Made by a program: the position numbers and the translations under genes. The notes beneath the pieces are model-generated. The model did not search any database, had not been told where the DNA came from, and saw nothing but the letters and a program-made list of their open reading frames with translations. A stretch of DNA of 64,000 nucleotides from Candidatus Bathyarchaeota archaeon (GTDB taxonomy: Archaea > Thermoproteota > Bathyarchaeia > 40CM-2-53-6 > RBG-13-38-9): contig CAWECG010000001.1 in assembly GCA_963807605.1 (NCBI GenBank), positions 384,001-448,000 of the forward strand, given 5' to 3'. Of the stretch, positions 10,642-55,330 are shown in pieces (within the stretch, counting starts at the first letter, position 1; every line of letters begins with the position of its first letter).

Positions 10642-10764
10642 GACCCCCCATTATCTCAACCACCATCCTTGAGTTCAACCTATCTCAACCTACGTGCTCT
10701 TGCAATCACCCGAAGATTAACAAGGATGAGCAGCACCCGTCAACTTAACGGAACCTGCCCTGCG

Positions 10765-10806
10765 GTTCTGTCAAGTCTATGTTGGACTTTCAATTCTACC
10801 ATAGAT
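10765..10806. repeat. Dispersed repeat, copy 1 (copy 2 at 17466-17507)
   Basis: ggttctgtcaagtct(a/g)tgttggactttc(a/t)attctacc(a/c)tagat is shared. Confidence 0.7.
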
Positions 10807-12319: not shown

Positions 12320-12950
12320 TGATTATCTCTCCTTATCCTCCATTAACGTCGCAGGTCTGAAATGAAGGCCGAAAACTGATTCCATCTCGGTCTTTGACCC
12401 ATTGTGGAAACGAGACTTCGGTTGTTTCCTCGGACTTCCGCGACTTCGGTCAGTTGCAACAAGAAGAAGAATATGCGGGCAATCGTTGTAAATGACTCGC
12501 GTCTCTCGTTCTCGACAACTAACTTCGTGTATTCTCGCCGTCGTTCTATATAAGGATAGAAAGACAAGTTTCGTGAGTAATCTTAGTTAGAAGATGAAAT
12601 CGTCTATCTTCTCAGCAACAGGAAATAGTACATCAGTTAACAGAATAATGTTCCACGGCACACTGTTTCCCGAATAGCTACCTGTTATTAAAGGAAAAAA
12701 GCCACGTTGGACTTGATGATGCGGACTGGCTGGTGTGACTCATGGAACCTGTCTGACCGGGCCTCCCCTTCTTATGTGTCAGTGATAAGAGTGTTTAGAG
12801 TATGAAACACATATTGGATCTTTTGATTTGATGGCACCTACAATTCGCAGCTTTTGCTCCTATTGTTCGGCACTGATGGATCCAACGAATCCTCGATAGC
12901 GGTTGCGGAACAGGGATCTTCATTGAACAGGTGGCAGGCAAAGTCGAGTT

Positions 12951-13139
12951 CGTCGTCGTCGCCATAGCTGGTGAGCACACACACGAAATCAATACCAAGC
13001 GGTTCAATTCTAGATGCTCTCACCAACTAAGATGGGATATAGATAACTGGCTGTTTTGTGTGGTCACGTGGATGCTGTTTTTTTGACGTGAACATCCACA
13101 TAGACATTTCTAGGAAGAAATTGGGTTTAGCGCGCGCAA
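12951..13139. repeat. Modular REP-like element with a GGGATAT...GACATTTCTA module, ending in TAGCGCGCGC
   Basis: (cgt)3-tagctggtgagcacacacac...cggttcaat...gctctcacca; the tail matches 37140-37243. Confidence 0.85.
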
Positions 13140-16001: not shown

Positions 16002-16106
16002 TAGCGCGCGCTTGTTGGTTTTCGTGCGGGGTCTGTCGTTGGAAGTCTTTCGGAACAAACTGGTTCGGTGGCCCTGTGAGTTCAATCAAATCCCCTGCGA
16101 GTCCCG

Positions 16107-16222
16107 GTGTGTGTGCTCACCAAGGGATACTCCCAACATGAGGTGGTGGATAATAGTGTCGTCGTCACTCACCAGCTAGGCACACACACAAATCATAATC
16201 TAATGGCTCGCTACCCTCGCCA
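16107..16222. repeat. Modular REP-like element
   Basis: gtgtgtgctcaccaagggatac...gtcgtcgtcactcaccagctaggcacacacac...ggctcgctaccctcgcc. Confidence 0.8.
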
Positions 16223-16350
16223 GCCATCTTACCCTTCTCCTAACATCACAAACAATTCTGACTGTCACATGTCAAATCAGACCGTAAGGATTTGCCGAGC
16301 ACATCTAGGGATTGAACTTCGATTTAGTTTAGGGCATAACTCATCGAAGC

Positions 16351-17408: not shown

Positions 17409-18195
17409 TCATGCTCGCCTCCCCTAACGGCTAGGGCGGGTACATGCTCACTGTGTAGCGCGCGTGGTTCTGTCAAGTCTGTGTTGGACTTTCTATTCTA
17501 CCCTAGATCGATTGCCTACGGATGCCGTGCCCTAGTTAGCTTCTGGTGACTTACTTTTTTTCACATTCTTGTACATGGCTATTGGTTCTTTGATTCTCTA
17601 TCTTGGGAGATCAATCGTACTTTCATGGTTTGATGCTGTTTCTTATTTGGGTGAATCTCTCATTGGGCTTTCGGATCGTTTGATTATCTCGCTGTTCCAG
17701 ATCTTGGTTCTTGACTCTCTTTGATCATCTGCAGGGATCCGGTGTACCTAATGTTCTTCTCGGTATCTTAGGCTCCAGAGGATGAGTCGAGTGGCGCATT
17801 CATTCAACGTGGTATTTTACGTGTATTTCCCTTAGCATAACAGATCGATCGTCTACAGTCTCCGTAGTCGTTTTAGTGTCAACCACCGCTCCCTCAAAAG
17901 ACCCTAGAATAGCTCGAGAGAACGCACTGACTGTTTCTTCATCCGCAATCATGAGAAAGCGCATAGAAATAATAGTTCCTTCATGTATTAGTTCGAGTAG
18001 GCCTCGGCACCCATATTCATAGCGTTGATATAGCTTCCTTTTGAAAGAGAAGTACGGTCCCTCTACCTACGCATAGATCAGCTTTTCAAGAACACCGGGA
18101 ACACCAGTCTGCGCGAAAAACTCTAGCACCATACCTATCCATCCTAAGAAAAAAAGGAAAAAGAAAAGGGAAAAAGAGGAAAGGAGATCTGTGGT

Positions 18196-18933
18196 TTAGA
18201 GTGTAGACCACTTTGCCATTGGATATCTCACTGGCGCCTTCGCGACCTTGTCTGGGTAGACGCAGACTGGTTTACCATCCTGCCACTGCAGCGCTGACAT
18301 CTGGTGGCCGGTCTGCCAGCCAGTGACCGGATCGAATGCTATATCCCCGAAGAAACCAGTGAAGTTTACATTGCCGACAGTCTGTCTCATCGCGTCGGAG
18401 TCTAGTGGGTTACTGCATTTCTCCATCGCGGCTTGCAGGATGAGGCCTTGCGTGAAACCTGTCCCTGCCGGGTATCCTGGATTTGTAACGTTGTAGTCAT
18501 TCTTTAATTGTGTCATGAACCAGTCTTCTGTTGGTCCATAGTTGGATGGGTAGTCCTCTCCCGGAACCCACTGGGTTATAGAGACTATGTCTTCGCCGTA
18601 CTTGGGGCCGAGTCCGTCGTAGAACTGCTTGTAAACTCCGTAGGTACCGGGGTAGAATAGTTTCAGGTCTAGCCCGAGCTCGCGAACATTCTTTGCAGCC
18701 AGCGATGACTTAGAACTGGCTTCGAATAGGAGTATCGATGGATTGGCTTGCTTGACCCTTGTGAGTACCGGGGTGAAATCTGTTGAATCAAAAGCTACCT
18801 TCTCATAGTAGACTATGTTCAGTTGAGGCTGCTGCTTTGCCCACTGATAGCCATATGTTCCAGCTATGATTCCAAATCCATCATCGGTGTGGACTATCGC
18901 TATGTTCTTTGCATCTGGATCTTGGGGTATAAT
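18196..18933 (-). pseudogene. Branched-chain amino acid ABC substrate-binding protein (LivJ/K-like), N-terminally truncated
   Basis: Open frame IIPQDPDAKNIAIVHTDDGFG...DFTPVLTRVKQANP... is in frame with 18196..18516; no start codon or signal peptide. Confidence 0.85.
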
Positions 18934-19206
18934 CTACGCGCGCGCTTCTCCCTTCAACGCCTTCTTCTTGATCTTTGTGATATCTCGTGCCAGTGTGTAT
19001 TCACCGAGGGCTTTGATCCATTTTTCAAAATCATCCCTATTCATATGGAATTTGATGGATCTGATATCCACCTCGGCAAGGATTTTATAGAAGCTTTGTA
19101 GATCGGCGGCCAACTTGTCTGCGTAGACACCTACATCGGTGTAGAAGTAGAAAGGATTTGGAGTCGCAGTAGCAGCCTGAAGAGTTTCGCTTCTGTACAA
19201 GCTCAT
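18934..19206 (-). CDS. DUF5752-like protein, probably C-terminally truncated
   Basis: FYFYTDVG...SIKFHMNRDDFEKWI; ends LKGE-ARA-stop inside the GCGCGCGC motif. Confidence 0.7.
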   Translation of the reverse strand: MSLYRSETLQAATATPNPFYFYTDVGVYADKLAADLQSFYKILAEVDIRSIKFHMNRDDFEKWIKALGEYTLARDITKIKKKALKGEARA

Positions 19207-19341: not shown

Positions 19342-19842
19342 TTATTCTATGAAACGTCCATCATCCGTTGTCTTAGGAAGCTTGTCCAGTCTTCCCTCAA
19401 GCCATCCTATTCGGTCTGCCTTACGACAATCGAATTCTGGAACATAGGGTTTAATATCTAATAGGGGGGTCCCATCCACGATATCCACATCTTGAATGTG
19501 GAGCTCTGCCTTTTCAACTCCGACCAGACGTACTACAGAGATTCCGATTGGGTTTGGTCGAGCTGGTGCCCTTGTAGCAAAGACCCCGTGAAGCGGATCA
19601 TCAAGAAATGGTTTCACCTTTAAGGAAAATCTCTTGCATAGATGAAAATGATATAACAGAATAACATGTGAGAATCCCTCAAGATCCTTCAGCCCTTCAA
19701 CATACGGCGGAAACACCTCGACAGTCCCTTCAACGTTCTGAGCGGAAGCTGCCTGTATAGGCGTTCCATATGGTTCCTTAAACGGCGAGTGAATAATTCC
19801 TATCGGCCTGTAAATTATTTCGCTTTCGATCCGATTCCTCAA
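19342..19842 (-). CDS. tsaA: tRNA (N6-threonylcarbamoyladenosine37-N6)-methyltransferase TrmO/TsaA
   Basis: GVFATRAPARPNPIG and GTPLLDIKPY. Confidence 0.93.
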   Translation of the reverse strand: MRNRIESEIIYRPIGIIHSPFKEPYGTPIQAASAQNVEGTVEVFPPYVEGLKDLEGFSHVILLYHFHLCKRFSLKVKPFLDDPLHGVFATRAPARPNPIGISVVRLVGVEKAELHIQDVDIVDGTPLLDIKPYVPEFDCRKADRIGWLEGRLDKLPKTTDDGRFIE

Positions 19843-20153: not shown

Positions 20154-20465
20154 ATGGCTGAACCTTCATGGACATTTGCAATAGAGGCTAAGTTGCTTCA
20201 AGAGAAGAGTATGCGAATTGCATTTCCCAAAGGGATATCGATCGTTCTCTTCAAGAAGGCTGGAGAAATCTATGCCCTATCGAATAAGTGTGCCCACATG
20301 GCCTGTCCGCTTGCAGCAGGCACCCTGGAAGAGTATACGATCAAATGTTCGTGCCACGATTGGAAATTCAACATAAGAACCGGCGAGTTTCTCGACGCAA
20401 AAGAGATCAAGATACCAAGTTATGAATGGAAATTAGAAGACGGGAAGATATTCGTAAAAATCTGA
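20154..20465 (+). CDS. Rieske 2Fe-2S ferredoxin
   Basis: CAH...CSCH. Confidence 0.9.
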   Translation: MAEPSWTFAIEAKLLQEKSMRIAFPKGISIVLFKKAGEIYALSNKCAHMACPLAAGTLEEYTIKCSCHDWKFNIRTGEFLDAKEIKIPSYEWKLEDGKIFVKI

Positions 20466-20477
20466 GGAGGTGCCATT

Positions 20478-20723
20478 GTGAAAAAAGTTAGAATGTACAC
20501 GCTGAGCACGTGCCCTTGGTGCAGGAAGACAAAGCAATTCTTCAAGGGTAAGAACGTCCCCTTCGAGTATGTGGACTATGACCTCGCAAGTGAGGAAGAA
20601 CAGGGTCGAATAATGGAAGAGATGAACAAGTACGGCGGCAGTGCCTTTCCGTTCGTAATGATCGGTGACGACGTCGTCGTAGGGTACAACCCTGAGAAGT
20701 ACTCAAAACTGCTAGGAGTATAG
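20478..20723 (+). CDS. Glutaredoxin/NrdH-like redoxin
   Basis: CPWC motif. Confidence 0.9.
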   Translation: MKKVRMYTLSTCPWCRKTKQFFKGKNVPFEYVDYDLASEEEQGRIMEEMNKYGGSAFPFVMIGDDVVVGYNPEKYSKLLGV

Positions 20724-20734
20724 AAGGGATACGC

Positions 20735-21082
20735 ATGAATGTGCAGGCGAGGAAGAAGGCCCTCCGATACTTCTTTCAAAAGGTCGTGGATCCTCTTGGC
20801 TACAAGTTCAGTCCTGATGAGGATCTGGTCGATTTTCTCCTAGAGCAGGAGGTTTTGCTGGAACAGAAACACGGGATCCCCTACTGCCCATGCCAGGGCC
20901 TTACGAAGAGCCGGGAAGAGAATATGAAGATAGTCTGCCCCTGCATACCCTTCCACAGAGAACACTTTGACGCCATGAGACGTTGCTGGTGTGGACTCTA
21001 CGTGCACAAAGACGTGACCAACCCCGACGAGCTTCGACAGATACCACTATACGAACTAAAAGGTGGTAAGAATGTTAGTTGA
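20735..21082 (+). CDS. Ferredoxin-thioredoxin reductase catalytic subunit
   Basis: CPC...CPC...CWC. Confidence 0.88.
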   Translation: MNVQARKKALRYFFQKVVDPLGYKFSPDEDLVDFLLEQEVLLEQKHGIPYCPCQGLTKSREENMKIVCPCIPFHREHFDAMRRCWCGLYVHKDVTNPDELRQIPLYELKGGKNVS

Positions 21083-21467
21083 GGTAGCAAAGAAGAGTGA
21101 CATAGCTCCTGGTGGGATGAAAGCGGTTGAGGTTAATGGAAAAGAGATTGTTCTGTGCAACTGCGAATCCGATGGAAGAATATATGCTCTTGAACGAAGA
21201 TGTGGACATGAGAATGGCCCGCTTGAAATGGGAACTCTCGATGGGTACATCCTAACCTGCCCCATGCACAGCGTGCAGTTTGACATAGCCACAGGCGAAG
21301 CGCTGAGCAAACCAATCTATCACATCTCCAAAGACAAGCCTGAGAAAGAAGAGGAACCCGACACCTTCGCCCAGTATTTCAGTGAGCTCAGATCCCGTAT
21401 CAAGGTGCATGACTTGAAGACGTACCCTGTTAAGGTAGAAGGAGACTCGATAAAGGTCGAGGTCTAG
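21063..21467 (+). CDS. Rieske 2Fe-2S ferredoxin (likely start ATG 21072)
   Basis: CGH...CPMH. Confidence 0.88.
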   Translation: MVRMLVEVAKKSDIAPGGMKAVEVNGKEIVLCNCESDGRIYALERRCGHENGPLEMGTLDGYILTCPMHSVQFDIATGEALSKPIYHISKDKPEKEEEPDTFAQYFSELRSRIKVHDLKTYPVKVEGDSIKVEV

Positions 21468-23232: not shown

Positions 23233-23444
23233 AGAGAGCTCATTCCGCGGTGTGACAGACCAGTTAAGCGTCTCAGAGACGGCCTGTATCTAAAACATAG
23301 ATAATGTTGTGTACATCGCACATGCAGGTCGGGCGACATACCGTTGCCAACATCTCGATGATAAGAAAGCTTAGTGCTCGCTGCACGTTTGCACGGAAAG
23401 TGAGCGCACGCCAGAAAATCAGAGCGCGCGCGTATTCTCTATTT

Positions 23445-24483: not shown

Positions 24484-24597
24484 AAGCGCGCGCTAGCCTC
24501 CAGATTTGAACCGTTAGAGGAGAGTGTGTGTGCTCACCAGCTAATGCACATACACATGCCCCTTGGTGAGCGACGACGACGTTCACCAAGGGATACT
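24484..24597. repeat. GCGC motif + modular REP-like element
   Basis: aagcgcgcgcta...atttgaaccgttag...gtgtgtgtgctcaccagcta...cccttggtgagcgacgacgac..tcaccaagggatac. Confidence 0.85.
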
Positions 24598-25629: not shown

Positions 25630-25710
25630 TCGTCGTTCATGTCCCTTGGTGAGCACACACAAAACCCACTCTAACGGTTCAAATTTGGGTGCTCTCACGA
25701 GCTAGGACAA
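25630..25710. repeat. Modular REP-like element
   Basis: gtcccttggtgagcacacac...ctaacggttcaaat..ggtgctctcacgagctagg. Confidence 0.85.
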
Positions 25711-32520: not shown

Positions 32521-32634
32521 ATGTGTGTGCCCTAGCTGGTGAGCACCCACCACCACCACACACAATTCTAACTCACTCTAACGGTTCAAATCCGGATGCT
32601 CTCACCAAGGGGCACACACACCAAGCGCGCGCTA
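32521..32634. repeat. Modular REP-like element ending in AAGCGCGCGCTA
   Basis: gtgtgtgccctagctggtgagcac(cac)n...ctaacggttcaaatccggatgctctcaccaaggggcacacac. Confidence 0.88.
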
Positions 32635-39690: not shown

Positions 39691-39984
39691 GCAGACGATA
39701 TAGCCTACTCAAACACCACATCACTTCTCTAGCGTGCCCGTCAAAGGGATTTTGAAAGAGTTATCTCGATGGTTGAGACCGACCCCGTGTCACCTTCCTC
39801 CCGGGGCATCTCCTCTGTCCCAAGACTCACGCGTTCAACCTTGGTTTTTCATGAACCTACGTCTGGTTATTTCCGCGACGTCAACTGCGGTTGAAATGGC
39901 CTGACCTCTGGCTTTGAGGTTTACTAGCGCGCGCTGCGAAAGTTTTACTTAAGATATGCTAGTATAGTAATTGGAGAGTGAGGT

Positions 39985-55014: not shown

Positions 55015-55330
55015 TTCTGTTACACATTATTTCAGGCAATAAGTAAGTCGGGCATCTATCTTCAGCACTATCTCTTGCTAAGAGCACCCAGAATTGAACT
55101 ATTAGATTGTGATTTTTACGCGCGCGCTGACCGACACATGGATTATTGTCCCCACTGTAACAGGTATCAATGGCATCATGTCTAGGACAATAAAGCTCAC
55201 GCTAATAGGTCCAACCTTGCCCACAATGGGAGCAAATTAGATGGACCGCCAAATCAGAAACCTTAACGCATCTCAGTGTACTAACACGCGCTCACTTCGA
55301 ACCTCTGCTATCGACACGAGTCTTTCAAAA

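Follow-up and report, generated by a model that had tools for sequence, protein, structure and literature searches.

The DNA analyzed here, referred to below as the window, is a stretch of 64,000 nucleotides (C1:384001-448000) of G000, a 2.65-Mb, five-contig genome of a Candidatus Bathyarchaeota archaeon. On its minus strand a DUF5752-like open reading frame (ORF) and a fragment of a LivK-type binding protein gene meet across 10 nt of alternating G and C at window positions 18936-18945. We consider it very probable that this is a real joint carrying a filler made de novo, and probable that a dedicated, lineage-specific joining process is at work. The explanation that we favor as a whole, with moderate confidence, is that the tract is a scar of illegitimate joining with G/C filler and that a PriS-like enzyme together with its RNA is the likely writer; taken alone, the proposal that this enzyme and RNA may write the fillers is evenly balanced between acceptance and doubt. 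How breaks are rejoined in most archaea is still unclear, and this genome preserves hundreds of joining events signed by one palindrome. The joint at 18936-18945 is among the cleanest of them, with both parents identifiable to the base and a filler foreign to both.

Two genes joined across a G/C filler

Across the joint the minus strand reads ...AAG GGA GAA GCG CGC GCG TAG ATT ATA CCC..., and the motif tacgcgcgcgctt is located at 18935-18947 of the plus strand. The DUF5752-like ORF (18934-19206, minus strand) encodes 90 aa ending LKGEARA-TAG. The filler (18936-18945, GCGCGCGCGT on the minus strand) is homologous to neither flanking gene and supplies ARA, the last three codons of this ORF, plus the T of its TAG stop. 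Directly after the TAG and in the same frame comes the LivK-type fragment (18196-18933, minus strand), a 5'-truncated stretch of 245 codons (18199-18933) closed by TAA (18196-18198). The 90-aa ORF scored 30.5 bits against Pfam DUF5752 (cut-off 23) over profile positions 106-192 of 208, and the 245-codon fragment scored 67 bits against Pfam Peripla_BP_6 (cut-off 31.7) over positions 132-342 of 343, leaving it with no start codon, signal peptide or N-terminal lobe (profile positions 1-131). Sequence, translation and profiles agree with the ORF description and coordinates given by a first-pass annotation of the window. Because TAG is an ordinary stop in this genome, terminating 502 of its 1526 long ORFs, the frame shared by the ORF and the Liv fragment is meaningless, and read-through of the TAG to yield a DUF5752-Liv fusion protein was rejected.

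Besides the fragment, the genome has seven intact Peripla_BP_6 genes of 450-477 codons, to which the fragment is 74-96% identical in amino acid sequence. In BLASTN comparisons the alignments of all Liv paralogs begin within window positions 18929-18935, the nearest paralog (C3:693501-694328) having 95.3% DNA identity. An anchored alignment of six Liv paralogs placed the start of homology at 18935, the AG of TAG, in every paralog (paralogs ...ATCAACA/AGATT...; window ...GCGCGCGT/AGATT..., with the slash marking the start). Upstream of the slash the paralogs have neither similarity to the window nor a G/C seed. All seven extend upstream past the joint position, no full-length homolog was found to start at the first codon of the fragment, and a search of the rest of the genome found no orphan N-terminal Liv half.

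At the DUF5752 end, a decayed paralog (C3:135125-135346) matches up to GGAGAA (~18946) and then has eight different codons, and an intact 110-aa paralog (C1:449992-450270) runs about 13 codons further. As the paralogs continue for 8-15 residues beyond ...KKALKGE, the ORF has lost about 8-16 native C-terminal residues. No G/C seed is present at the corresponding point of the DUF5752 paralogs. With Liv homology starting at 18935 and DUF5752 homology stopping at ~18946, positions 18936-18945 are therefore filler from neither parent. The first-pass annotation had predicted that homology would stop within 18934-18947, as it does on both sides, and had asked whether either parent carries a GC-like seed there; neither set of paralogs has one. 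Its description of two truncated genes holds for the Liv piece, from which the N-terminal part is gone, and is too strong for the DUF5752-like ORF, which is only mildly clipped at its C terminus. The short N terminus of that ORF is probably native, since the intact 110-aa paralog lacks the same half of the Pfam model.

Note that the relative closest to the 90-aa ORF (55% identity) is the decayed paralog, which has two internal stop codons. A search of a 5.8-billion-protein set returned only the ORF itself, and across 16 genomes of the family there was one distant match, in the same-genus genome G001.

Compared with its nearest paralog the Liv fragment gave dS 0.146, dN 0.025 and omega 0.17, and its 245 codons contain no stop or frameshift. 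These values indicate that the gene was functional until it was truncated in the recent past. Downstream of the fragment come a normal spacer, the first ~23 codons of the livH permease gene followed by a stop (18070-18138, minus strand; found by tblastn with the intact livH at C3:340697-341572), and then unrelated sequence. The spacer and livH start behind the fragment thus identify the piece as a relic of a livK-livH operon.

Other Liv loci of this genome are also broken. At the closest intact livK paralog (C3:692852-694330, locus L019) the following livH is cut after nine codons with no G/C run there, so not all truncations in the genome carry filler. A second 5'-truncated livK remnant, consisting of the last ~40 codons (C3:341510-341754), precedes an intact livH and livM, and its boundary likewise has no G/C run.

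G/C runs coincide with breakpoints across the genome

The window has 13 GCGCGCGC sites (14 matches when overlaps are counted), where 0.38 would be expected, and the genome as a whole has 298 copies of GCGCGCGC versus 13 of GGCCGGCC. Alternating G/C runs of at least 8 nt number 320, of which 199 are flanked A..T, and run lengths drop sharply above 10 nt. Most of the exact (GC)4 runs, 106 of 147, have the form A-GCGCGCGC-T, the commonest of all (AGCGCGCGCT occurs 106 times). The filler at 18936-18945 is a member of this genome-wide A-(G/C run)-T class. The runs are concentrated in variable islands, among them one that includes the window, and 186 of the 269 (GC)4-containing runs lie outside called ORFs in a rough ORF-based gene set. 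The flanks are random except for the one or two bases next to the run, and the largest cluster of similar flanks (23 of the 269 sites) is a separate small repeat.

In a breakpoint test, the 600 nt on each side of every run were compared with the rest of the genome. At 79 of the 320 sites a homology ended no more than a few bases from the run, against 10-15 for random intergenic points and 8-15 when the same sites were shifted by 30 or 60 nt, and homology crossed the run at 11 sites versus 31-70 in the controls. On 77 of 89 breakpoint sides the partner locus lacks a run of at least 6 nt within 12 nt of the homologous point. Partners are 67-100% identical (median 90%), with values of at least 99.5% in only four of the 89. 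Because breakpoints coincide with the runs and the partners have none, the run appears to have been written at the joint, rather than being a shared recombination site or the product of a chimera. Some short segments copied from elsewhere (57-514 nt) are flanked by runs on both sides, showing that fragments were captured as well as deleted.

Analysis of the runs relative to gene starts, gene ends and gene orientation detected no preference of distance or orientation, and a promoter or terminator role was rejected on this ground. Hence the view of the first-pass annotation that the motif is a physical DNA junction and not a regulatory box is upheld in both its parts, by the local stop of homology, by the breakpoint and partner counts and by the lack of bias relative to gene ends. 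That two natural gene ends lie here with a regulatory or terminator palindrome between them would accommodate the mostly intergenic position of the motif and its frequent abutment to TAA or TAG. We consider this extremely improbable, since the Liv ORF lacks a start and profile positions 1-131, its seven paralogs all continue upstream of the joint and the genome-wide runs have no bias toward gene ends.

The run might instead have existed beforehand, as a recognition or recombination site (integron-like or HIP1-like) or as a fragile tract able to form Z-DNA. Exchange or deletion of segments would then take place at it, and the RNA described below might guide an enzyme there. The clustering of the runs in variable islands, the segments bounded by runs on both sides and a palindromic motif that complements the RNA segment in either reading would all be in keeping with such a site. 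However, its absence from the homologous point in 77 of the 89 partner loci, the lack of a run in the seven Liv paralogs and the DUF5752 paralogs here and the absence of anything common in the flanks beyond the run make this reading quite improbable. Two specific versions were rejected. An integron-like cassette site does not agree with partner loci that in 77 of 89 cases are without the core run, and a transposon end, miniature inverted-repeat element (MITE) or target-site duplication does not agree with flanks that share nothing or with a run on one side only of the Liv fragment.

Distribution among relatives and the question of artefact

Copies of AGCGCGCGCT number 16-119 per genome in five genera of one family, in contrast to 0-5 in the other three genera of that family and at most three in nine other families of the order. 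A control word with the motif reversed gave 0-5 per genome. The motif-bearing metagenome-assembled genomes (MAGs) stem from unrelated projects.

An assembly or library artefact, in which chimeric contigs were stitched at a low-complexity G/C string, finds hardly any credence with us. A contig from an independent assembly (Logan, run ERR10755942) has the same gene order, an identical TrmO gene product and the identical 90-aa ARA-ended ORF product, although it ends 48 nt past the ORF stop and the match is established at the protein level. Hence the check by spanning reads that the first-pass annotation proposed is answered in part: a second assembly encodes the ARA end and continues 48 nt beyond the stop, the agreement extending to the DUF5752 side as translated. 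Other data argue against an artefact. The Liv fragment has at least 4.7% divergence from each of the paralogs, and a piece with 95.3% rather than complete identity to its nearest paralog, an omega of 0.17 and no stops is not an assembly chimera. The breakpoint partners are diverged, as described above, and the motif is enriched in MAGs of unrelated projects and not in sister genera.

A separate pattern was seen in the sample of G035 (loci L088-L097), where GGAGGGGGTA / TACCCCCTCC occurs about ten times in 187 kb versus 0.07 expected, with no long G/C runs.

A PriS-like primase as candidate writer

The candidate writer is a PriS-like gene at C3:72234-73127, which is located among G/C runs. Its family comprises more than 130 protein clusters of ~265 aa, most members being on contigs of 1-5 kb. 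In 27 sequences the residues D96, D98, S148, G149, G152, H154 and D205 (DxD, SG..G.H, D) are invariant or nearly so, and the family profile matched solved PriS chains with an E value of 2e-11. With Pfam the G000 copy scored 24.2 bits, which is below the 26.8 cut-off, and two homologs scored 30.3 and 27.5 bits. No PriL gene is adjacent, and in long contigs the gene sits among core chromosomal genes. The two richest relatives have it complete or nearly so, G000 with an intact gene and G001 with a single in-frame TGA, and fragments persist in G003, G007, G009 and G013. In 21 motif-poor relatives neither the gene nor the RNA was found.

Two of the fragments, both N-terminal and from two other genera (G009:C157, locus L022; G013:C13, locus L029), begin directly at a GCGCGCGC run, and thus the gene of the candidate writer was itself cut and rejoined with the same scar.

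Other polymerases were considered and rejected. The Ku plus LigD polymerase domain pair does not track the motif: the domain was found only in G000, G008 (broken), G016, G019 and G025, and was not found in G001 (119 sites) or other motif-rich genomes. The G000 locus (C1:591368-592231, locus L018) consists of a gene for a LigD-type primase-polymerase domain followed by an ORF read as Ku from its N-terminal sequence, a bacterial-style nonhomologous end joining (NHEJ) pair present in only a few of the relatives. A second PriS-like gene of 258 aa (C3:316905-317681) occurs in motif-free genera and is absent from motif-rich ones, and canonical PriS, which is found in motif-poor genomes too, does not track the motif either. 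Extra PF01896 matches over 31 relatives gave no pattern, and searches of G000 for Prim-Pol (PF09250) and reverse transcriptase (PF00078, RVT_1) gave no matches.

These distributions bear on the reading in which the joint is real and the filler is untemplated. Terminal transfer or slippage by PriSL, by the LigD polymerase domain with Ku or by PolB would then produce tails that join by microhomology, and the PriS-like gene and its RNA would be mere fellow travellers of variable islands. Archaeal PriSL repairs double-strand breaks and has both terminal-transfer and microhomology-annealing activities (PMC12019639). The Ku and LigD domain genes of G000 and eight motif-rich relatives in which no RNA was detected also speak for it. 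Against it stand the absence of the Ku/LigD polymerase domain from G001 and most motif-rich genomes and the presence of canonical PriS in motif-poor genomes, and the sharp A-(GC)4-T preference with fixed flanks argues for a defined template. Together with the flank switch described in the next section, these data lead us to regard an untemplated filler as rather unlikely.

An RNA element linked to the PriS-like gene

A conserved RNA element overlies the last codons of the PriS-like gene and the region just beyond. Its order from the 5' end is a strand GGUUACCC, CUGA, an optional hairpin, GAUGAAA and a single-stranded segment ...GCGC(G)UAA(A/G)AA; there follow a stem strand, GGGUAACC, CGAUGAC and the partner of the stem strand. 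Two long-range helices cross, and therefore the fold is a pseudoknot. In 13 sequences the three helices are 87.7% paired, versus 42-54% when the partners were slid, and twenty pairs changed on both sides versus 3-9 when slid; none of 500 shuffles reached the observed values. The CUGA...GAUGA pairs, as read from the sequence, resemble kink-turns. The covariance models of Rfam 15 gave no match to the element at E values up to 1. A covariance model built here (R1) detected two copies in G000, one of them on the intact gene, and four in G001, and found none in G002-G030.

The second G000 copy is an orphan (C1:380233-380353) located 3.6 kb before the window. In C1:380233-381331 (locus L110:1501-2605) it is beside a 75-aa N-terminal stub of the PriS-like gene, and a 216-aa nitroreductase-like gene of opposite orientation takes the place of the remainder of that gene.

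The template segments read GCGCUAA, GCGCGUAA or GCGCGCUAA, to be compared with joints of the form ...GCGC-TA. The orphan RNA (ACGCGCUAAGAA) fits the majority A-(GC)n phase. The AGCGCGCGCT sites number 45, 108, 53, 74, 82 and 70 in the carriers whose RNA is intact and whose gene lies on a contig of 10 kb or more, and G040, in which the RNA reads UGCGCGCUAAAAA and is on a separate 4-kb contig, has 118. The RNA of G031 reads AACGCAUAAAAC (...CGCAUAA), and this genome has few AGCGCGCGCT sites and many G/C runs. Of its 33 runs, 13 are flanked T..A and two A..T, versus A..T in 199 of 320 in G000, a comparison that rests on a single natural variant among related genomes. The T..A flanks are what copying of ...CGCAUAA would give, and a switch in step with the RNA argues against an untemplated filler.

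A possible joining mechanism and its relation to known systems

In the explanation that we favor, a functional livK-livH segment would have lost its 5' part, leaving the last 245 livK codons, the spacer and ~23 livH codons, and this remnant would have been joined to the 3'-clipped end of the DUF5752-like gene. About 10 nt of newly made alternating G/C would have sealed the ends, providing Ala-Arg-Ala and part of the stop by chance. More generally, some Bathyarchaeia would tail broken or captured ends with a short self-complementary G/C tract, with annealing and ligation to follow. The stand-alone PriS-like primase-polymerase would work with the RNA encoded over its own 3' end, and the RNA segment ...GCGC(G)UAA... 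would be copied onto DNA 3' ends in the fashion of telomerase, giving 5'-TTAGCGC-3' tails. Two such tails could pair through GCGC to give ...TA-(GC)n-TA..., which is the observed consensus. Such gluing would seal deletions, capture stray DNA fragments and leave A-(GC)n-T scars. On the proposition that some Bathyarchaeia possess a primase-based, RNA-templated counterpart of telomerase whose self-complementary tails could glue any two ends, our judgment leans neither way.

Several observations weigh against this explanation. At the locus itself, the far truncation point of the Liv piece (~18070) shows no filler, only one side of the fragment having a G/C run, and the joint may have arisen either by a single deletion, removing the end of the DUF5752-like gene, the spacer and the start of livK, or by capture of an 866-nt fragment. 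The intact G000 RNA copy (GCGCGUAA; GAGCGCGUAAAA) predicts the minority A-(CG)n-T phase; one tail of each kind would be expected to give A-GCGCGCGCG-T, the form at 18936-18946. The G/C stretch of the RNA is 4-6 nt and the fillers are 8-10 nt, and because the template is shorter than the filler, repeated copying or two meeting tails must be assumed. In eight motif-rich relatives (16-63 sites) the RNA was not detected and the gene is present in fragments at most, and it is because of them that we only infer the enzyme link; their lack may reflect loss after scarring or unbinned short contigs. Conversely, three carriers have few sites (G035, one; G037, seven; G038, one), although in each the gene is on a short contig (4.3 kb or less) for which mis-binning is possible. 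Since the motif is palindromic, an RNA guiding an enzyme to existing runs would fit the same co-variation. The evidence for the enzyme link is all correlative and the genomes are related. Finally, we know of no archaeo-eukaryotic primase (AEP) that copies an RNA template in this way.

Telomerase consists of TERT and telomerase RNA, and it also adds repeats de novo at internal breaks. The system proposed here would resemble it in that the PriS-like gene is linked on the DNA to an RNA with a structured, pseudoknotted fold and a single-stranded segment of this RNA matches the short repeat at DNA joints. In a single case, G031, the sole genome in which the RNA segment differs, the joint sequence differs too. 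Unlike telomerase, the polymerase is a PriS-like AEP and not a reverse transcriptase (G000 has no RVT_1 match), the palindromic tract joins two ends within a circular-type genome instead of capping a linear end, and RNA-templated synthesis is here putative.

The PriSL of Saccharolobus islandicus carries out microhomology-mediated end joining, terminal transfer and strand annealing and leaves small indels (PMC12019639). The candidate here would likewise be a PriS-type archaeal enzyme, but the fillers form a defined class of sequence and length, and none such is described for PriSL (PMC12019639). The candidate also differs in being a separate ~265-aa paralog with its own RNA and no neighboring PriL, and the distribution of canonical PriS does not follow that of the motif.

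Ku plus LigD NHEJ is similar in that unrelated ends are joined with short non-homologous filler, and G000 has both genes, but these were not found in most motif-rich relatives. To our knowledge there is no report of a sequence-specific filler from Ku/LigD. In eukaryotic polymerase-theta end joining, fillers are copied from nearby DNA and are different at each junction. Those junctions share with ours the extra nucleotides from neither partner at deletions or captured fragments, whereas in G000 the same palindrome recurs at hundreds of junctions. A search of one literature collection found nothing linking GCGCGCGC to archaeal joints or Bathyarchaeia to end joining, and no description of an RNA-templated primase. 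The scars themselves suggest that these Bathyarchaeia rejoin broken DNA in a manner so far undescribed.

If the proposed writer were correct, it would be the first RNA-templated DNA-end tailing system on a primase fold and a functional telomerase analog of prokaryotes. It would also provide a route for the capture and shuffling of gene fragments in variable genome islands and might be put to practical use for the enzymatic addition of short, programmable tails to DNA ends. The motif is useful whether or not the enzyme is involved, because it marks sites that were cut and rejoined, which aids annotation of pseudogenes and chimeric ORFs.

Further joints in the window and the neighborhood of the Liv fragment

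Eight of the 13 GCGCGCGC sites of the window are breakpoints. At the GCGCGCGC joint at 13130-13137 four homologies end at 13135-13137, and at that at 16004-16011 homology to C1:140896-141001 (91.5%) begins at 16012. A 7-nt G/C run (17458-17464) is followed by homology to window positions 10764-10806 that begins at 17466. The joint at 23424-23432 precedes homology to C1:375217-375493 (93%) beginning at 23433, that at 24486-24493 precedes homology to C3:584963-585028 beginning at 24495, and next to that at 32625-32632 homology ends at 32623. Unrelated homologous segments meet at the joint at 39927-39934, one ending at 39925 and the other beginning at 39935. At 55119-55127, homology to C3:498219-498296 begins at 55126.

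The genome also has a dispersed intergenic repeat of ~55-110 nt with 10-20 copies, present in the window at 12949-13137, 16168-16224, 24495-24557 and 25640-25709. Several copies abut G/C runs. The repeat, which makes up the largest cluster of similar flanks (23 sites), is a sequence separate from the filler.

Upstream of the DUF5752-like ORF is an intact TrmO-type gene (19342-19842, minus strand; Pfam TrmO_N). A comparison with the same-genus genome G001 for the state before the joining event found the neighborhood not conserved, the TrmO gene there being followed by a radical-SAM gene. Adjoining TrmO in the window, at 20154-21467, are genes for two Rieske-type ferredoxin-like proteins, a glutaredoxin-like protein and a protein like the catalytic subunit of ferredoxin-thioredoxin reductase. 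This redox cluster is kept gene for gene on the independent Logan contig.

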